From Octopus vulgaris (Eukaryota), in contig OX597815.1 of NCBI GenBank assembly GCA_951406725.2, forward strand, positions 82,770,001 through 82,834,000: a stretch of 64,000 bases of DNA, written 5' to 3'. Each line of letters begins with the position of its first letter. The stretch's first letter is position 1. Of this stretch, positions 6,241 to 61,986 are shown piece by piece. The notes beneath the pieces are model-generated. The model had not been told where the DNA came from. It did not search any database and was given only the letters and a program-made list of their open reading frames with translations. Position numbers and translations under genes: made by a program.

Positions 6241-6333
6241 TAATTGGCTGATGAGTACTAAGCATCTTAAATCTGTTGTAATACTTACAGCATTTAATAA
6301 AATGATGTAGTACGAAACGATCGTACCAAATTA
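6241..6333 (+). ncRNA. Type I hammerhead ribozyme, canonical core
   Basis: Stem I UAAUUGG/CCAA(A)UUA; CUGAUGA at 6248-6254; stem II GUACUA/UAGUAC with an extended inner stem; GAAA at 6314-6317; palindromic stem III ACGAUCGU; predicted cleavage after GUA (A6325). Confidence 0.88.
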
Positions 6334-6363: not shown

Positions 6364-6408
<45 letters not shown>

Positions 6409-12122: not shown

Positions 12123-12184
<62 letters not shown>

Positions 12185-26375: not shown

Positions 26376-27228
26376 CGTTGTCTGATCAAAAAGTATCCGG
26401 ACTGTTGCAATTGTAACGAAGCTAAAGTACGCAGAGTGAAGCCGCTTGGTACAGATTAAACCTGAACTCTGTTGAGCATGTGCACTAAGTTTTAACCTTT
26501 TAGTTCACTTCCGCTATTTCTAACTGTGCTTGAAAAGTGTGTAGCATGTGATCGTTTCCTTGAAAGTTGAGCAGAGAATATGCATCTAATTTTGCCAAAA
26601 GCTTGGCGATACCTGCTCAGAGGCTTCTCTACAAAGTTTTCAAGAAGTTTTCATCGTTCTCGATTCAATCGAAGTTATTTCATGCAACTGAAACCCGAGT
26701 GTCATTTTGGTCAGCTGAAAGCAGTTCTGGCACAAACTTGACAGACTAGTGTCTCATACCCAAATCTTCAGTGACAATGGACTGAACTGAATCGCAACTG
26801 TATATCATCTGATAAATCATGGATGGTGATTCGATGATTTCTCCACACAGTTGCACGCATATCTACAATGTTTTTCTCAGTTCTGCTGACAGGTCTTCCA
26901 GAACGTTCGTCAATATCGACATTTTTCAGCCATCTTAGACACGTGTGAACAACTCGTACACTGTGGGCGGCTCATAGATTCTCTCCATGCACTTTCTGCA
27001 ACTTTGTGCAGGCCTTTGAACAGGTATCGCCCTGACAACTTTATCATGATCACACACTATATACTTTTCTTCCAAGCACTGCTGTAAACAGCGGAAGTAA
27101 GCTGGAACGTTAAAACCTACTGTGCATGCATAGCAGAGTTTAAGGTCAATCTGTGAGAAGCGGCTTTACTCCGTGTGCTTTAATGTCCTTACTATGGCAA
27201 CAGTGTGGACACTTATTGATCAACCTCG
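26376..27228. mobile_element. Non-autonomous mariner derivative with long imperfect inverted ends
   Basis: TA|CGTTGTCTGATCAAAAAGTATCCGGAC ... GGACACTTATTGATCAACCTCG|TA. Inverted similarity extends at least 140 bp. Internal minus-strand transposase remnant SVQSIVTEDLGMRH*SVKFVPELLS. Confidence 0.8.
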
Positions 27229-28114
27229 TATAGGAATTAAGACAGAGATGTATAAAATACATGCGCTCTGGAGCAAGGATATCTACTGAACAAGCTCAAG
27301 TCTTCTTCTGGCTCACTATGGGTTTTCTTATGGGTTGCCTGTATCAAGTAGCATGACAATACTGTTTAGGAAATATCAAGAACTGAGACGTATGCACTAT
27401 CTTTCAAGGAACAGATGGTAAATTGAGGGTCAAAGAGTGGAGTTGACAGTTTTTGCAGAATGATGATCTGGACAAAAGCTAGAAGGCCGAAATTCTGCAG
27501 GCATCTAGAAACGATATTATAAGCATCTCACTCATTAGTAATAGCGGGTGACAGGAGTGGTTATCGATACCATATACATATATATAGATGTTGTTTTCAT
27601 TAGGTTAACCGAGAGGGGACGCTGTATGTTGTTCACAGTTTAGTATAGCTGGCTACACAACCCACCAAATTTTGCACGGACAAGTCATAAAATATTAGAA
27701 TAAAAATTTTAAAATGAGGCTCCGAATAGTAGAAACCGAATGCTTCTATCGTATCACAGATATTTCAGGAACTGGACTGCCGAATTACTGAGAATTGAAG
27801 GGTAGGATTAAGTTGTAGATGTCTATAAAAAATAAACCTAGTGTATAATACTGGTCAACAAACTTTTTGCTGACTTCGGTTTTGTGGTTGCTTTTAGTTA
27901 ATTTTGAGGAACTGATTTCAAATATGACATCCATTTTTCTAACATATCCGTATTTCATGATGTGCTGTATAAATAATTTACTTGGTCAGGATAGTTTACT
28001 AAGTCTTATAGCTCAAACCATAAGTTATAATATCTATAGAATGCGAAATGATAAATGAAATGTAAGAAATCATCACGTTTTACTAAATACATACTGTTCA
28101 TTTCATTTACATTT

Positions 28115-28165
28115 TTACATTGTCTTTCGGCTGATTTACTCTCCAGCCTGCGTCAGGTTTCCTTG
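28115..28165 (-). ncRNA. Degenerate hammerhead motif
   Basis: CUGACGC-A-GGCUG-(10 nt)-CAGCC-GAAA; stems I and III eroded. Confidence 0.4.
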
Positions 28166-28230
28166 TAGACGTTTCAACCCAACCCTAGGTTCCCATTCCC
28201 AGGGTATTTTTTGCTGATGCTGTTGCTGTT

Positions 28231-28265
<35 letters not shown>

Positions 28266-28381
28266 TGTTGTTGTTGTAGTAATAGTAGTTGTTGTTGTTG
28301 TTTTGGTGTTATTATTACTATTATTATTATTAATATTATTATTGTTATTATTTATTATTATTATTATTATTATTATTGTTA

Positions 28382-28429
<48 letters not shown>

Positions 28430-28482
28430 TATTATTATTATTATTATTATTTATTATTATTATTATTTTCATTATTATTATT

Positions 28483-28790
28483 GCCTTTGCACAGCTTCAA
28501 ACGCTGGAGATGTACTACAGTGTCAGCTGTTCACTACCAGCAAACTAAGATAATATCTCTTATTTTTCGAGTACCTTCCAGTGTATACGAGCGGTTCCAA
28601 GCAGTGCCATTTTCTGCAAGTGCTGCACCCTTATTGCAGCCCCTATTTGACAACCTTGTTGTCAGTTGGGCATGCTATGTCTATGATCCAGCATAGTTTA
28701 TTTTCTTTCTCAATTAAGACTATGTCCGGCTTCCTATTCTCTAACTCATGGTCGCACTGAGTCATAAAATCCCATAGTATCTTTGCATTT
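28483..28790 (-). mobile_element. 3' end of an R4/Dong-type retrotransposon (RLE domain) abutting (TAA)n
   Basis: KILWDFMTQCDHELENRKPDIVLIEKENKLCWIIDIACP and LQKMALLGTARI. The 3' end runs into (TAA)n at 28305-28482, consistent with Dong-type TAA targeting. Confidence 0.85.
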
Positions 28791-30097
28791 AATGTACAGA
28801 ATTCCTCATCTCTAAAATATAGAACAATATACTGTTAATTCTCTAATATGACGGCTAAAACACTAACCATTAAACTCATACCTTCATATTCCCAGAACAA
28901 ACTTCCGCTTGTGAGAGCATCTGGAGTGTTTCTTGTCTACACAGTCTGTTTGAATACGCCAGCAGTATGTGTGATCCCTCAGCCTTGATACCTCGCCTCC
29001 ATAATTTTGATTGCTTGATGCAAACGCTCACTATGCGTATTGCTCATATCTCTGAGATTAGCAGGAAATTCATCGAGATGGCTGTGGAGGAAATGAAGCT
29101 TTGCGCTCATGTTGCTACCTAAAATATGCAAGTTTTCAAGTAATGTCTCCACTAAATCCTTGTAGCTTTCAGCCTTTTCACTCCCCCAAAATCCTTTCAC
29201 ATCAGCCACAAATGAATCCCATGCTCTTTATTTTGTCAGCCATCGAGCGCGAGAAAGTCTAGCATTTCATTAACTTTCTGATTTGTAGCCTATCAAAAAC
29301 ACCAGCCGTTATTTTATCATAAATTAGGCCAGGAAATGTTGCACGTCTGAATTGGAGACAGTTACCCTCCCCATTAAGAGCTTTGACAAATTGCTTCATT
29401 AGTCCTAGTTTAATATGAAGGGGTGGAAAGATGATTTTCTTTTACTCAAACAAATACTCGGTGTATGCTATTCTTCTCCCCAACAGCCAAACATTTCCTA
29501 ATTGGCCAGAGTTTCTGTTCCCAATGTTTGTCTTTCACTCGGCTATCGCACAAACGCAAGATACAAGGATATTTTGTATACCTTCCATGTTCACCAAGTA
29601 AAACGTTGACCATTTTTAGATCCACGCATATGAACTATTTGTGTTCATCATACTTGAGTAAATCTTATATAACTTTTATGTTATTATAATTGTCTTTTAA
29701 GTGCACAGAGTGACCAATAAAGCGATCCGAACAAGTTTCCATCATGGAGTAATACGCATTTTAGACTCATTTTTGAATTACCTACAAGAAGATTCCATTT
29801 GCTAGGATCATACTGTTCAGCACCCATCCTTTTAACAATCCCGTTACCTTACAATAGTAAACAAAATTTTTTCCAATTGTGAAGAATGCCAAAAGATCTT
29901 TTTCCCTGTTCCAATAAAAAGCCACGTTTGTTTCTTTCTGCAACAAATTTTTCTCTTTCAGCCTAGAAGCTAACAGTTCTGATAACTCTTTTGGCAGTAC
30001 TAGGTCTCTAACTAATTCCTTAAGTTCTGCCTTGGTTAAAGTTTTCACGTTCATTAGTTAATGTTTCTACACAGTCTGTATCACTACCATGTTCATA

Positions 30098-30138
<41 letters not shown>

Positions 30139-30759
30139 AGTAACACACTGTGGGAAAGAAATCTTTTAAAGGGGTGTGTTTTAAACATCCAATTCACTGG
30201 TACGTCAGTTGAATACCATATAATTATTGGTATAATGAAAATTAAAAAATAAATCGAATAGAGAGATACTATTGATATTCCAATAATTTATGTATATTAT
30301 AATGTTACATAATAAATTATGAATATAATGTAACATAACATAATATTATATAACATAAAAAATGATTAAAACCATACAAGGCCAACAAATTGTTTCGGCT
30401 TATATATATTTTTCTGATATATATAAAATAATAACAGTTTCCTTATATATAGATTTACTTCAGGGTCATGGTTTAAATATAGACGAAATTCCGTGTGAAG
30501 GGACAGGTGCATTGTAAATATATATCTATATATATTGATATATATTGATATATATATTTATATATATATATATTTATATATATATACATCATCCACACAC
30601 ACACACACACCTCAAGGTCACTAGTCCCCTTCCACAGGCACATACACGCTCTCACATACACACACATGCACCCCTTCGTTTTGGGATCATCACTACTTAT
30701 TATCTCTCCTTCTTCCTAGCTCTCCTGTGTCACCCCTTTGTCTGGCATTCGCCATGATA

Positions 30760-30930
30760 GATTGCTAACCACTAAACCTTTTCGTATTTCCTCTCCCTGT
30801 TTATTTCTGTGTTCCTTTCTGTCGAAGAGCGTATGATCGAAACGTAAAAGACTTTCTCACTTCCCGAGCGTTAAACTATTACATCTGTTTTTTTTATTTA
30901 CACACCCGGCTTCGTCTTTTGTTTTTTCCC
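30760..30930 (+). mobile_element. PLE-terminus-like repeat with HHR-like GAAGAGC..UCGAAACGU motif
   Basis: Homologous to 62170-62330 (minus), where the stem GAGC-GUAG-GCUC precedes GAAA. Both abut (TA)n. Confidence 0.5.
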
Positions 30931-31115
30931 ACTATATATTGTGTATACACACACACACACACACATATATGTATATATATATATATATATATAGTTGAGT
31001 ATAGAAATTCGGGGTGAGTACTTGATAATTATAAGCACCTGTGTATACCGTTTGGTGGTGTAGGTGGTGGAGTAAATTGATCAAAATAAAATAAAAACAT
31101 GATGCGAAGGATTCA

Positions 31116-31193
31116 GCGGTACATATGTTTCGGGCCTTTATTAGACAGATTTATAACAATGCATAATGTATGTCTGTGGCCTTCTTCAGCCGC
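31116..31193 (-). ncRNA. Type I hammerhead ribozyme (A-C mismatch at the base of stem II)
   Basis: Stem I GCGG/CCGC; CUGAAGA; A-GGCC...GGCC-C with inner ACAGA/UCUGU; GAAA; palindromic stem III ACAUAUGU; GUA cleavage triplet (position 31120). Confidence 0.75.
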
Positions 31194-34100
31194 GCACAAC
31201 AGCTTCCGCAAGGACATGTGTTACATCAAAAATTCTTGGTTGGGGATGCAAATCCTCTCATTTACGTACGACATAATGCGGCAGCAGCATAGAATTGAAG
31301 CGTCCATCTCTTTCTTCTCTCAATGTAGAAGAATATATATATATATATAATTTTCATCTTGCAGTGAAGGTAGATCCCTGAAAACGGTTACTGGTATTTC
31401 ATTTGAGTGAAGCACCGGACGAATTGCCGAATTCAGATGCGGGTAACTTATTTTCTGTCGCGGTCTCTTGCTATGACCAGACATCTTAATGAGACAAAAG
31501 TTATCGTTCTTTGGCTCCCGCCAAACCATAGGAATGTCAAATGTTCTTTGTGTCCTTTGCTCATTGGCATAGATTTTCGACACAGGGTTTACATCCACTG
31601 TGCGGTGCCCTCCATTTATCCTGATCTCCAATTTTAATCTTAAAGTAAGCCAAACAAGATCTTTTCACAAAGTCACTAATGCTCATTGTTTGACTTGGTA
31701 CTATAAAACACCCACATATATAACAATAATATTTCCTTCGCAATGACGCCATACTAGTGAAGCCTCGTGTTATTTCATTAAATAAAAGTGAAAAGAGAGA
31801 AAAAATAAAGAACATTTTTATATATCTAGGTTTGTCTAAATCCATGTCTAAATATATAGATAAAATAAATATTCAACAGAAATGTTTAACTATGTTTAAC
31901 TATGATATTTGTTATACATTTTTTGATAATAATAAGAAATTAGCATTGCAGATTAAGACAATCGAGCGTTCGAGCGCACAGTTATGAGGAAACACACTTC
32001 TACACAGGTATATATACTACGCTGACAGAGCGTCACAATCTCACTCAACGAATATGCAACTGACACTGGAACTTTTACCTTTCAGATACTCTATGGAAAA
32101 CACATCGAGAAATTTCTGAAACATGGAACTACAACTGGGACCAATATGGGTCAGCCCATAGAAAAAGAAAACTCGATGTGATAGAAAAACACTATTGTCA
32201 TTTTAAAACCCAGTGACTCCAAATTACCCCGAAACAGGTCTCAAACTGAAGAAAATGTTGGAATTTGATGGCCAGTGTAAGAATAGAGAATAAGAATTGG
32301 AATTTGTTGGGAAAGCTGTAAGAACAGAGAACAGAAAAATACAGAAGGCACTAAATTAGGAACATTCTGTATCGTGTGAGCCGAAGTACGGTGATGCTAT
32401 TCAGAAATGAACCGGAAAAGGGAAGCATAATTGGGGACTTTAGATGCACTTAAGATTACATGCAGAGTTTTTCTTCAAGTGCCTGGTAGTTTTCATTGAC
32501 AGTACAGTTGGATACTAATGAGATATATTCAGAATATTCTCCACCCCATGCAACACATCCTAGAAGGCATTAATTTGTAGATCTGATTATGTTGGGTCTC
32601 TGCTCAATTTACATTAGCCTTAGATGCACTATATAGTCTGTCTTCTCTATTTAAGGTGTGACAGGACTGCAATCTGAGATAATGGATCAGTACAATATGT
32701 GGCGGCATTTGTTCAGTTGTCAAAATAAACGGAACTGCATTGCATAGCGTGCTCCATTTACTGGAGGCGAAACCTCGCGCCTCTTCTGTATGTTTTGGTG
32801 CTGAGCCCTCTACTATGAAGTGTGGCGGTGTTCAGATGTTCCTCACTGAATCTAAGGGGTAAGAGCGCTCCCTCTCTGTGATGTCGAATTAATCGAAAAT
32901 TCTGGAGCGCAGTACACTTCTGAAGGAGTATCAGAATGTGACTGTTGCATTAACCATGGAAGAGCTGGTGCGTTTGCAATTCGATACATGGAAAGACAAG
33001 TTTATGCGAGACGGCTGTTTCTCTCGCTGAAACAAGGGTATGTTCTAAGGTAAATAAAATCTAGGAAGATATGGTGAAAAAGTTGGCAGTCTCACTCAGA
33101 ATTGGACTTTGATGAGGCTATCACCGAGAGGTTAAATGAAAGTAACTAATATGTATACTACTTTGTCCCTATACCACCCACCACCCTGACTGTCTGGCTT
33201 TTCTCAGGAAACAACCAACGAGATTAAGGGAATGGATAACAGAGATTTTCCTCTTCGTATTCAACAGTATCCATGAGAAAGATAGAATAGAGAGAGATAT
33301 GTTGCTCTTCATTAAGCAGCCTGAAAATATGTGACATTGACTTACTTAAGGCTGAACGGTCTGTTCTGAATCTGTGATTAAAGACCAGACGCATCAAGCT
33401 CGAGAGTAATCGTATATTTGTCGGTTTTCTCATTCGCTCTCAGTGTTCCACCGTTACGACCCCAAACACCAAATTTTCAATATATTTCTCTAGTCTCTAT
33501 ATTTCTCTACAGTCTCTAAATTTTCAACATTCTTTACCCGTGTATCCTTTACTTTCCCTCATCCGCTGCCTTTTGACAAATTAAACAAACAACTATTTAC
33601 TAATATTCATATTGAGTGCGACTGATATGTAGAAGGTTTATGCTGAACATATAGAATATATTTATTCCGGTCTATTACTTTCTGAGATTAAATCTCACAG
33701 AAGTCAATCTTGCCTTTCATCTTTCTCATTCAGAAAAGGAGCTTGGGTGGCATATAATTTGATTGACTCCTTCCGACAAATTTCTGATACTGTGCTTATG
33801 TTAGAAATTATGTGTGTGATTGAGTTTAGCAGAATCGTTAGGACCTCAGGAAAATTGCTTTGCAGTATTTTGGGTCGCTTTACACTAAATGTTCAAATAC
33901 TGCCTAGGTCAGCTTAGGTTTTTATTGTTCTAAGGTTGATAAAATAAAGTACCAATCAATGATTTGTGTCTATATCAAAAAATATTCACACGAAATTATT
34001 GAAGAAAATTTTATTATTATGATTACTAGTAATAATCGTTGTCGCGGTCATAGTTGATTCCGTAGTAGTTATAGAAATAGGATTAAGAGTTGGTTGTTGC

Positions 34101-37100
34101 AAACGCAACATTAAAGGCAGCGAAGAGGAAGGAGGTAAATGGAAAGTATAGCGTTGATGAAAGGAGAAGAGAGCGGGTACATAGCGTAATCGTATCCAAT
34201 ATCTCCCATAGTTAAGCAAATTTCAACTTCCGGAATGTCAAGCCGACCCAGCTGATTAGATTCACATACCCACCTACACATCTTTTCTTACTCTGTTAAA
34301 TATATTCCTTTCTCATTTCTATTTTCACTTTCACTTTTCTCCTTGTCTCTCAATCTTTTCATTCCCTCTTCGTTTCTCATTCATTTTCTCTTGTCCTCTT
34401 TCTATCTCACTCGTTATTTTTTCTCTTCTACCCTTTTACTCTTTGCTCTCATTTTAACCTCAATAGTCACCTACTGTACCCGCTCCTCTCTTCTCGCTTT
34501 CACCTACAATACTCCAAGAACATCTTCACCATTATTAGGTATTATCCGTTAACTTATTTATTTCCTCGTCGTCGAAGCAACCACCACCCAACAAACATCG
34601 ATATCATTTCCCACCCCTTTCTCCTCTTTTTCTCTTCCAACTCTTCGCGTTCTTTTTACTCCACATCAATATCTTCACCGTTGTCCGTATCACATAAACT
34701 ACTTCCTTTATTTCTAATTTCCCCTTGTGCCACCTCTATCTCCACGTCTTATCATTAACATGGTAATCCTATTCTTCTTACTCTCCCTCCTCACAACCAA
34801 CATCATTATCATCGTCGTTGTCGTTGTCGTCGTCTTCTATTGTTCCATAGATCTTCCATCTTTATGCAAAACCAAATATGCCAGGTAATCAAGGACAACA
34901 AAGCAAATTTATTACTAATGTTGTTGTTAATAACATTATTGCTGTTTTTGTATTTATTGCGGTCGACGTAGTTGTTATTGTTAATGTTGCATCTATTATT
35001 GTTATTGCTCATTTATCATATGCTTCTTGGTATATATTCTCCTTGTCTCTCATTTTCTTTCTTTCACTCACACACATACATACGTGTGTGCGCGCGTGTG
35101 TGTCTGCGAGCGTGTGTGCGTGTGTATTAATCACCTATCGTTCGTGTATTGTTTTACTGTACTCATGTGGCAGCAGAACAGCTGGATTCTAATTTTGGAA
35201 TATTTCTTACTTTCGCAAAACATTCATATACAGAAACATTTCTATATATATTTGTATTTTTATCAATTATTAGAATCTTCCTACCATGAGATTTCCTAAC
35301 AAAGAAACAAAGCTGTTGCGATGTGGATTATATACTGTACTTTAGGAAAATTTTGCACATTTGAACAGTTCTACTTACAGATTGAAGTTAGAATTCTTGT
35401 TAGGAAGTCACTCCATTTGCTAGATAATCGTAGCTTCTCCAAATTGTCACGTAAATATTTACGAACATTATGATTAATACAATATGAATTTCTAATCAAA
35501 GTAGAGGGGCTGCCGGCTTCGAAGCAGCTTTTTGTAAATATTTTCTTTCTCAGACTGCTATAACAGGTGACCACATATGCAGGGCCGCTAACTTCTGTAC
35601 ATAGACTTTCTTCTCTATTCTAACCAACTATAGTAGGCCTTTTATGTTTGCACATGGTAGAATTTTTATGGAACTCTTTCGCCAATACTCCTTGCGTTGA
35701 TATCTATGTTTTTTTTGTAACAGAGATACTATCATTATTTAAGCGAACGCCGTTTCTCATACCGGTGGTAATTTCTACTCTTTTGGCAGCATTTATCGCA
35801 AGAGGAGGGAGCAATTTTTGTTGATGTTTATTAAATATCTATTGTCCTCCACAGAAGAATGGCATTGTCGATACTAATGCTTGATACTGGAGGTTTAATG
35901 GCTTTAGTGTCTGGTTTGTTCATGAGATATTCATAGCTAGTTCTTGCTTTTGGATTACAAAAGCATAACCCCCGAGATATAATGCGACTCGTAGGTCACG
36001 AATTTTATATAACATCAAAATATATGTAACAATGAGTTCCTCTGATATAGAAATAGATTGCTCGCAGTATTCTAGTTAATTTATTCAAAATTAATTAGTC
36101 AATTTGTAAGAAATGTATGAAGCTTGTTTTGGAATTAATAACAGCAAGGAAATTAGGCTCACTAACATTTATACCAGTCGATCAAAATTTTCTCAAAACT
36201 TTTCAAAGAGAATAGCAGGCCTCAGCTTCAAGTATGTTTTGAGAGATTTTGCGTATATGAAATATTGCAAAAATTCTTAATTTCCATAATTTCTGTCACA
36301 ATTTGCTCTGCATCTGTATGTATAGATATTTTAGTTACTCTTACATTAATAATTACCAACATAGATTCCAATAATTTACAATAATTTTGCATAAAATAAA
36401 AAGTATTTCATTTGTATTCCAGACGTATCTATTACTTTTAAATATAGAGATGTATGCATTTATATATCAATTATGTTTAACATTGTAGACAGAGGTTTCT
36501 CAATGGGAATTTTGTGTGTATTTTGGTGGCTGCTAAGGTCGGGATAATCGATATATATATGTTTAATCAAAGGGATGTGATAGTACCCGTTTTTTTTAAT
36601 GTGAAACAAGTGTTGTATGCATACAATGCGTGATATCTACAGGAGAAAACATTTGCACTGGCTTATGTTGTGGAAATAAACGAAAATGATTTGTCTGAAT
36701 CTTTCTATATGAATTGTCATTTGGCAACGGAATATTCAGCATTCATGTGATGAACGTATCGGAGATGTGAAAGCAACTGGCAAGCTATAAATAAAAGAAC
36801 ACAAGTGTTTTCAAAGTATTATGTGTGTGTGTGTGTGCATTCGTGTGTGTGCGTGTGTGTATGTTTGTGTCTGTGTGTGTTTGAGTCTATATATATATAT
36901 ATATATATCTATATATATATATACATATATTGGGTAGCTCTCGTATAGCTCTGAGTTCTTCATCCTCAGTATTCTCGTGTATACATACATACATACATAC
37001 ATACATACATACATACATACATACATACATACATACATACATACATACATACATACGTGTATATATATATATATATATATTTCGAGTCATTCCTGTGCAA

Positions 37101-54725: not shown

Positions 54726-55144
54726 CAAATTCGCAATGACAAAAAATATATTTAGTCACATACACAAACACCCACACACACATCGACACACACACTCGCA
54801 TACACACACATTTATAGTTATGGCATATTCTATTAAGAACGTAGTAGAGTACGGTATAAAGCTCGTCCACCTTCAGATTTCAACCTGTGCTGTCCAGTAG
54901 TAGTATTATATGTACTTCTGGGTTTGCGTTTGGATTTCTGTCTTGCGTGAATAGATAACTGAAAAAAATCTGGAGTCAACAAGGAGTACGGTTGGACATT
55001 TATTTTTTAATCGCTACAATTGTTTCAACAGACGTGCAGGTACATGATTATGCAACTGTTTCCCCCCATTATGATCTCGAGTTGTGTTTCCTCAGGCGAT
55101 ATGTAATTATTTTTTCAATTATACGTTTATATATATATATATAT

Positions 55145-55185
<41 letters not shown>

Positions 55186-61598: not shown

Positions 61599-61986
61599 AT
61601 CTATTTCTTGGTATATTTGGCTAACTGCCTGTTTGTCTGACTGCCTGACTATCTATCTTTCACCCTCACTCTCTCTCTCTCCTTTTCTCTCTCTCTGTAT
61701 TGTATATATATATATATGTATATATATATACATATACATAGACACATATGCATGTATATATGCATATGTATGAACATAATACAAATACACACGCATACAC
61801 ACATACTTGCATACACACATACACGCACACATTATGAACTACTTCCAAGAGTTGATTTCATTATATTTATCTAAGACTTCGTTGCTTATGCATTGTTTAT
61901 TTACATTTTAATATACACATAGGTATATACGTATACATACATACAAACATAGAAATATATATATATATATATATATATATACCACT

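Follow-up and report, generated by a model that had tools for sequence, protein, structure and literature searches.

A nest of three retroelement tails in a TA microsatellite within an old transposon copy of Octopus vulgaris

Layout of the insert

The window analysed here is a 64-kb stretch of the Octopus vulgaris genome (assembly GCA_951406725.2, contig OX597815.1, positions 82,770,001 to 82,834,000; G000:C2:82770001-82834000 in our coordinates), and positions are counted from its first base. Inside it, an old DNA-transposon-like copy is interrupted by an insert of TA-rich microsatellite tracts and retroelement fragments. Two copies of the 7-mer ATAATTT (30095-30101 and 31347-31353) enclose the insert and are separated by 1,245 bases. 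A sequence-only reading of the window had interpreted this arrangement as a de novo cassette inserted into the host copy, with (TA)n at both ends and a 7-bp duplication. Both strings are present, and the insert does start and end in (TA)n, but instead of a single cassette we found pieces of three families of different age. Between the two host parts, four TA-rich tracts (T1-T4) alternate with three 5'-truncated retroelement tails (A, B, and C), beginning with T1 and ending with T4; the 3' end points left in A and C and right in B (Table 1). What the old transposon copy holds is a TA tract with three retroelement tail fragments nested in it, a new instance of a known pattern.

A TA tract touches the 3' ends of all three fragments, and across T3 the 3' ends of B and C point at each other. 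Tandem Repeats Finder (TRF) placed the inner TA/CA tracts of the insert at 30518-30610 and 30947-30993, and fragment B includes a CA-rich stretch of its own with (CA)8 at 30594-30610. A contig of sequencing run X1 matched 31301-31872 with no differences, showing that the junction of C, T4, and host is present in that run. No contig bridging the insert was found among 15 of 75 joints listed from four of 24 available runs (X1, X4, X19, and X20), in which short contigs and alignments broken at TA tracts are uninformative on the empty allele.

Table 1 Features of the insert and of the host copy around it
Feature	Position	Strand	Remarks
Left part of host repeat copy	28830..30100	-	Old DNA-transposon-like family with minus-strand open reading frame remnants; paralogs align to 28830-30108
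T1, pure (TA)17.5	30101..30135		100% matches; adjoins the 3' end of fragment A; paralog alignments enter 7 nt, to 30108
Fragment A, last 380 bp (3' end) of an old retroelement-like family, unclassified	30136..30517	-	3' end left; 5'-truncated at 30517
T2, imperfect AT-rich tract	30518..30586		Period 2, 79% matches; between the 5'-truncated ends of A and B
Fragment B, 3' terminal part of a second family	30587..30934	+	5'-truncated near 30587; 3' end ..CCCACTA at 30934
T3, compound (TA)(CA)9(TA)14 tract	30935..30993		Between the 3' ends of B and C
Fragment C, last ~337 bp of the pLTR (pseudo-long terminal repeat) belonging to a very young Penelope-like element	30994..31332	-	3' end 30994; 5'-truncated near 31330-31332
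Hammerhead-like motif inside C	31116..31193	-	Motif scan
T4, pure (AT)8.5	31333..31349		Between the 5'-truncated end of C and host; paralog alignments begin inside, at 31343
Right part of host repeat copy	31350..31729	-	Paralog alignments; holds the right ATAATTT, 31347-31353

The window has a GC content of 35.4%. It contains 76 perfect TA tracts of at least 12 bp, often within compound TA/CA/GATA arrays, which amount to 1,998 bp or 3.1% of the 64 kb.

Three fragments of different ages

Other copies of each fragment were searched for in the genome (2.8 Gb in 227 contigs). The candidate counts are first-look search hits and are lower bounds, and the identities come from the listed matches. Fragment A (30136-30517) was 76–86% identical to other copies (at least 1119 candidates, 51 matches listed), fragment B (~30587-30934) was 85–90% identical (at least 3586 candidates, 40 matches listed), and fragment C (30994-31332) was 98.5–100% identical (at least 1757 candidates, 48 matches listed). 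Within each family one end was constant and the other was variable, the constant end lying on the left for A and C and on the right for B in the orientation of the window. Most other copies of A, B, and C continued beyond the truncation points seen in the window. Each fragment has kept its 3' end and lost its 5' part, which is a hallmark of target-primed reverse transcription.

Three families of three ages imply three insertion events. A rival explanation is that the whole block was moved as one DNA piece, for example through capture or ectopic repair, with a 7-bp duplication at the point of entry; the single pair of flanking repeats is its sole support. However, no second copy of the A-B-C composite was found in the genome; the best non-self match was 86% identical for A and 90% for B, compared to 100% for many C copies. 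The different ages of the three pieces at one place rule out movement of the block as a unit, and together with the lack of a second composite copy they exclude transfer of the whole block, which we regard as extremely improbable. Since the fragments entered at different times, the TA tracts served as a repeated landing place. In this respect the sequence-only reading, which had proposed TA tracts as a landing pad for further elements, was borne out by the presence of fragments of different ages in one tract.

Element families behind the fragments

Copies of the fragment A family had a constant left terminus beside microsatellites and variable 5' ends, and the longest of them were at least 1.3 kb. 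Eleven head-to-head inverted pairs, all joined 5' to 5', were present among the 51 matches listed, two of the 11 being copies of one duplicated locus. A search for open reading frames (ORFs) in this family found none. For fragment B, no inverted pairs were present among the 40 matches listed. Upstream of B, four longer copies enter an ORF with a GIY-YIG motif that is visible by eye, and this ORF (L055:654-1097(+)) gave a weak match to the Pfam family GIY-YIG (PF01541, E 0.018, 15.8 bits), which was under the cut-off of 22.6.

In two copies of the C family, L031 and L096, same-strand ORFs come after C, and C-like sequence returns beyond those ORFs. In L096 the C sequence forms a terminal repeat at both ends, flanking the ORFs. 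The L096 copy (G000:C8:66763000-66768500, minus strand) is a near full-length member of a young Penelope-like element (PLE) family. Its ORF is split into parts of 377 and 443 amino acids by a 59-nt gap, which is either a break or a retained intron, and its downstream repeat stops ~80 nt early, straight into a TA tract.

The 443-residue ORF of L096 had 47 homologues, most of which carry the precomputed domain PF26215. The homologue alignment showed a Cys-rich linker followed by GIY/YIG-type blocks, and it also contained a conserved GLYRDDGL block and an ADKT block, which are putative PLE-type reverse-transcriptase motifs. The AlphaFold model of this ORF had a mean predicted local distance difference test score (pLDDT) of 63.9, but the score was 80–97 over residues 310–420. 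The C-terminal domain of the model (L096:2815-4146(-), residues 309–434) matched I-TevI with a Z score of 9.2 (root-mean-square deviation 2.4, 90 aligned residues), T4 EndoII with a Z score of 7.2, and the UvrC N-terminal domain with Z scores of 6.1–6.6. All top 10 structure matches were GIY-YIG domains, and the next unrelated structure had a Z score of 3.3. Foldseek also ranked GIY-YIG folds first for this domain, but at an E value of only 0.27, and the ESM Atlas gave a lead to clusters that carry PF01541. On the basis of the structure model, the family of fragment C is predicted to carry a C-terminal GIY-YIG endonuclease domain and to be an endonuclease-positive PLE. Pfam searches assigned no family to either L096 ORF or to 10 homologues, a PDB profile search with the L096 ORF gave nothing below E 0.13 (reverse-transcriptase part included), and an extended homologue search with the Penelope-like ORF yielded nothing useful.

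Two of the three fragments, B and C, are tied to GIY-YIG Penelope-like elements. The pieces of the insert had earlier been described as PLE-terminus-like; all three are retroelement termini, but the tie to PLEs extends to B and C, and fragment A has no coding link of any kind. In the C family, five head-to-head inverted pairs of 5'-truncated copies were present among the 48 matches listed, and more were found at L040/L153, L036/L154, and L032/L185. At L026/L027 (G000:C1:19710647-19714537), two stubs of the C-family 3' end, 54 nt and 44 nt long, are each enclosed by TA tracts. These stubs sit between two long copies with facing 3' ends and resemble the outcome of integration that was repeated or aborted within a single tract.

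The hammerhead-like motif

A hammerhead ribozyme has the core words CUGANGA and GAAA, a cleavage-site triplet, and three helices. We scanned the window with a regular expression for the core words plus pairing of the three helices, and used 50 block shuffles of the window as the null. The scan gave three hits, versus a mean of 0.22 hits per shuffle (maximum 2). One hit lies inside C at exactly the coordinates where the sequence-only reading had placed a hammerhead ribozyme. This motif has the core CUGAAGA..GAAA, a 4-bp stem I, a 4-bp stem II with a 51-nt insert and an A.C mismatch at its first pair, and a stem III of 2 bp that ends in the palindromic loop AUAU. The 2-bp stem III with a palindromic 4-nt loop and the long stem II insert were common to all three motifs of the window. 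The other two, at 6244-6329(+) and 55010-55100(-), have the canonical cores CUGAUGA and CUGAGGA and the loops GAUC and AAUU, respectively. A TA tract (6368-6402) lies on the 3' side of the plus-strand motif, whereas the minus-strand motif has TA tracts on its 5' side, at 55128-55182.

The Rfam and folding results did not follow the earlier claim. Rfam detected no hammerhead at E ≤ 1 in 27000-35000, at E ≤ 10 in 30994-31332, or at the gathering threshold in the whole window; the sole matches, TA/CA sequences resembling mir-297 and mir-3149, scored far under the gathering scores. The fold of 101 nt around the motif in C had no three-way junction and was not better than shuffles (z -0.28). The motif did not recur in a hammerhead scan of the A and B loci. 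A scan hit in L006, where the insertion is without TA, is probably spurious. Judged by its core and helices, the hammerhead-like motif in C appears credible, but it falls outside the hammerhead family as Rfam recognizes it.

The host copy and its empty site

A 351-bp probe from the left of the insert had 42 matches in the genome that were 77–87% identical. The host ORF had 32 homologues from various invertebrates, all without names or Pfam domains except for one kinase fusion. The sequence-only reading had named the host copy Chapaev3, a type of CACTA-Mirage-Chapaev DNA transposon. In the search for a transposase domain, no Pfam family was found in 12 minus-strand ORFs of the window or in two ORFs of L012, a better-preserved copy of the host family. 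Our paralog set comprised 19 loci and, added later, 20 short stretches, of which 33 were scorable (16, plus 17 of the 20). These paralogs are a proxy for the true empty allele.

Removal of the insert had been said to restore an open minus-strand frame, from which a TA-free empty site followed. With the insert and one 7-mer removed, the minus strand (frame 1) does read ..PSLQDENYEHGSDTDCVETLTNERENFNQ.. and is stop-free. The better-preserved L012, however, reads ..LQGESHVCEVDINHDHDSD.., and relative to it the window copy has an in-frame gap of eight codons (SHVCEVDI). Because the missing stretch is eight codons long, the frame stays open without the insert. Stops and a frameshift also lie close to the site in the host copy of the window.

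The sequence-only reading had proposed alignment to other host copies as a check of the empty site, and the outcome went against it. The left flank (to 30101) and the right flank (from 31354) were non-adjacent in the paralogs, with ~24–27 bp between them in the 33 scorable copies. The majority sequence of the host family at the site is ..CATGATTT / ATATCTACTTCACATATAT CAC / TTTCACC. By our count, made by eye, ATAT stood directly at the left junction in 12 of the 33 paralogs, with mostly ACAT in the rest, and a TA run of at least 6 nt stood directly at the right junction in 20 of the 33. The longest TA run at the site in any paralog was 8 nt, and none of the 33 carried an insertion. A TA tract already present in the consensus had been named as evidence that would speak against a de novo cassette; short TA runs are indeed there, but no long tract. 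When the window was aligned to the paralogs by BLAST, the host alignment entered the left tract by 7 nt and the right tract by 10 nt, leaving ~6 host bases over.

The left ATAATTT aligns with host ATGATTT and the right one with host ATCACTT, ~24 bp further on, and these two majority words agree at five of seven positions. The background rate of such a 7-mer was estimated by pairing the left flank of one TA tract of the window with the right flank of another, unrelated one and counting shared 7-mers that were not pure TA. A shared 7-mer occurred in 557 of 5402 flank pairs (10.3%), and in 83 of 1548 pairs (5.4%) when the flanks were free of dinucleotide runs. The test for a target-site duplication was negative at this site, with the outer flanks ~24–27 bp apart and the two 7-mers at different host positions in the 33 paralogs. 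At seven C copies, several with uncertain 5' ends, no repeats of at least 6 nt were found outside the TA blocks, and there was one 5-mer. A target-site duplication is an unlikely explanation of the 7-bp repeat. Set against the paralogs, the two pillars of a de novo cassette, namely the 7-bp duplication and the TA-free empty site, do not appear to hold.

The same host copy is interrupted elsewhere. A second insertion of ~380 bp (31730-32110) is absent from at least 10 paralogs and has no TA at either end, and trinucleotide arrays occupy 28104-28823, namely (GTA)n and, at 28221-28482, (TTA)57.

Origin of the TA tracts

We give an even chance to the explanation that three 5'-truncated tails of different age, two of them tied to GIY-YIG Penelope-like elements, entered one (TA)n serially, and that this tract grew from short TA runs of the host. 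The starting point would be the short TA runs of the host transposon just inside both junctions, which would have grown into a TA tract. A would have entered first, B second, and C last, each event dividing the TA tract on its right. The ~9 host bases that separate the two TA runs would have been lost at the first insertion or during tract growth. At each integration the element nuclease may nick the TA repeats; copying may be primed by the TA-ended target DNA, paired with the U/A-rich RNA. The 7-bp repeat would be a coincidence.

Several observations weigh against this explanation. The perfect 7-mer requires three substitutions relative to the family majority, and no paralog has a TA run longer than 8 nt at the site. 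In the subfamily that shares TCATCTT to the right of the site, all nine copies have ACAT rather than ATAT on the left, so that the left TA seed needs a substitution. The host bases missing at the site are unexplained by plain tract growth. In the host-family copy L104 (G000:C5:67296699-67297099), a 33-bp in-frame deletion without any insertion, bounded by the short direct repeat TCAT, covers exactly the host stretch that is replaced in the window, and a prior deletion at this place is therefore not far-fetched. Only one embedded TA tract of at least 10 bp was found in 32.1 kb of host-family sequence, which makes spontaneous tract growth in this family rare. Two insertions elsewhere point the same way. 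The young C pair L040/L153 has (TA)8 and (TA)26 at its 3' ends, while four of nine paralog arms have no TA, and the B copy L058 has long TA flanks at a site where the one paralog shows just 9 nt of imperfect TA.

A prior deletion is what the sequence-only reading needs. In that model the 24–27 bp had already been lost, the target was free of TA, one insertion made a true 7-bp duplication and brought (TA)n at both ends, and B and C came later. The perfection of the 7-mer, a gap that is a multiple of three, and the L104 deletion bounded by short repeats at the same place are consistent with it. However, the insertion would have had to hit the exact scar of the earlier deletion, and it would be a coincidence that the lost host stretch starts and ends with TA-type runs just at the tract edges of the insert. 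The model offers no source for the TA that adjoins the truncated 5' end of the first element. Shared 7-mers of this kind arise by chance in 5–10% of TA-flank pairs, and the seven C copies, several with uncertain 5' ends, lack such repeats outside their TA blocks. We consider this model improbable.

Whether TA is the target or the product of insertion was examined at other insertions, in a small survey of hand-picked loci. TA was present at the 3' junction in 19 of 21 other C loci, and in the other two (GA)n lay beside TA (by eye). Six of seven 5'-truncated B copies had a TA-rich 5' junction. The TA at these B 5' junctions cannot stem from the element RNA, which supports TA as the target. In full elements, the junction of the upstream terminal repeat and the interior had no TA, indicating that the element encodes no TA tail. 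The C pairs at L029 and L042 lie within a (CA)n(TA)n tract native to a family resembling short interspersed elements (SINE-like), and at L029 all four paralogs carry 6–56 bp of TA at the site of the C pair. TA growth without any element was seen as (TA)9 in L008 at the L036 site, as (TA)28 in the SINE-like repeat at L060, and as (TA)9 inside the host-family copy L014.

A rival explanation reverses the order of events, in that integration itself lays down or lengthens TA. The nick would fall at very short TA motifs, and long tracts would be products of insertion. TA would come from read-through (UA)n or from repeated copying of a U/A-rich template, and an aborted second-strand copy would leave TA at the other side; the short host runs would be the nick sites, with the bases between them lost. 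In four of six informative cases (the window, the left junction of L036, L058, and L040), tracts at insertions were much longer than at the paralogous empty sites. Host loss between two TA sites amounted to ~9 to 24 bp in the window, 117 bp at L036/L154, and 28 bp at L058, and the left junction of L036/L154 lies at a (TA)3-4 seed. At L040/L153 the host resumes after 9 nt, and TA-rich tracts occupy the equivalent position in two of the nine paralog arms. The outer ends of head-to-head pairs are 3' ends on both sides, and TA is present at each of them.

The 3' termini bear on the same rival. The last 6 nt were missing in 20 of 41 near-full C matches, in which the TA tract passes directly into the TATA of the element itself, and an early end in an A/T-rich stretch with TA immediately after it was seen in the downstream repeat of L096 and in the inverted partners in L153 and L154. 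TA tracts also lie between the 54-nt and 44-nt C 3' stubs of L026/L027, and the host family has one TA tract per 32.1 kb, versus 76 in the 64-kb window. In the available text of Craig et al. 2021 (PMC8557442), the (TA)n bias is inferred from flanks, and empty sites are not mentioned there.

On the other side, the TA-rich 5' junctions of six of the seven truncated B copies require an extra assumption if integration makes the TA, the 3' end at L034 has only (TA)5, the tracts at L029 and L042 are part of the SINE-like family itself, and the TA-free inner junction of full elements leaves no encoded TA tail. The rival also relies on paralogs as a weak stand-in for the true empty allele and on the small, hand-chosen survey. 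Five further loci were of little use for comparison with paralogs. No usable empty site was found at L034, where the repeat begins 66 nt off the junction, at L053, where the junction is the end of the repeat, at L022, where the flank is the 3' end of another element, or at L028, where few paralogs extend to the junction. At L032, eight of nine paralogs were without TA, but a search of ~7.5 kb did not reveal where the host continues. The paralog survey of TA lengthening linked to integration gave mixed results. We regard integration as the maker of long tracts as unlikely, though with enough weight to be taken seriously, and the narrower claim that integration itself lengthens TA as doubtful to a similar degree. 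A broader idea, which we hold only tentatively and on the unlikely side, is that the (TA)n bias of Penelope-like elements is partly self-made, each 3' end being laid down with a TA tract, made by read-through of (UA)n or by repeated copying of U/A-rich RNA with a TA target end as primer, so that elements and TA microsatellites would multiply each other.

Two repeats met in the survey deserve description. The SINE-like repeat (L029, L042, L048, L056, L060, and L076) has its own internal (CA)n(TA)n, with 6–56 bp of TA in four copies, and by eye it also flanks the TA tracts at 12127-12178 and 61955-61981 of the window. This TA carrier, which is independent of Penelope-like elements, could be part of the microsatellite load of the genome. 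The repeat hit by the C pair at L040 (L040/L141-L152) often consists of two inverted arms 24–48 bp apart, resembling a foldback element or a miniature inverted-repeat transposable element (MITE), and a TA-rich tract occupies the same inner arm end in three of 10 copies.

Significance

As it stands, the locus is an ordinary nest, a stack of Penelope-like fragments within a TA microsatellite that lies in a dead transposon. Its value is that of a test bed, as it leads to the young C family with copies 99–100% alike and at least 1757 first-look candidates. Given this likeness of the C copies, individuals and sister species should differ in whether a C site is filled or empty, and a comparison of filled with empty C alleles would show directly whether TA precedes or accompanies insertion. 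At the window itself, an empty allele that contradicts growth from short host runs would read ..CATAATTT / TCATC.., with a single ATAATTT and no TA tract. If TA comes with insertion, the reading of microsatellite-rich invertebrate genomes would change, and mutual multiplication would help explain the perfect TA tracts that fill ~3% of the window. If TA does not come with insertion, the finding is closed.

Comparison with known systems

Telomerase and endonuclease-negative PLEs at chromosome ends have related reverse transcriptases, and the sequence-only reading had invoked repeated copying of a short template as a conceivable mechanism. The families of B and C differ from these in being endonuclease-linked and located inside chromosomes, and no sign of reiterative synthesis was seen here.

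Animal non-LTR retrozymes are small non-autonomous hammerhead repeats derived from PLE terminal repeats, as described in the available text of bioRxiv 10.64898/2026.07.22.740005. Like them, fragment C is a stretch of a PLE terminal repeat that carries a hammerhead-like motif and codes for no protein. Unlike the retrozymes, it is a single truncated end of an autonomous family, with a single motif and no tandem array; TRF showed no long-period repeat in 28000-34000 that could represent tandem units of the retrozyme type.

The birth of microsatellites at the 3' ends of non-LTR retrotransposons has been described for RTE in Lepidoptera (Tay et al. 2010, PMC2887409) and for L1 and Alu (Grandi and An 2013, PMC3812793), with slippage in the course of retrotransposition put forward as the origin. 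The window resembles these cases in its 5'-truncated 3' pieces beside simple repeats, and the seeding of (TA)n proposed by the sequence-only reading would work in this way. In contrast, the repeat in those cases belongs to the 3' UTR or tail of the element itself, whereas here no encoded TA was seen at the inner junction of the full element, and TA is often found at the 5' junction too.

Endonuclease-positive PLEs are described by Craig, Yushenova, Rodriguez, and Arkhipova 2021 (PMC8557442). Three features of the elements at this locus differ from them: the reverse-transcriptase part is without a Pfam or PDB sequence match, the hammerhead fails Rfam, and A is without a coding link. The likeness lies in a GIY-YIG domain behind a Cys-rich linker, a terminal repeat on both sides of the ORF, and a hammerhead-like motif in that repeat, as well as in 5'-truncated copies, head-to-head partners, termini in (TA)n, and no clear target-site duplications. 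According to that paper, head-to-head inverted 5'-truncated partners occur in Penelope-like elements, and several PLE clades have a (TA)n insertion bias, for which reason target-site duplications are often not discernible. The mechanism of the PLE microsatellite bias is named there as an open question. Serial Penelope-like insertion into (TA)n, the landing-pad pattern seen in this window, is already in print.

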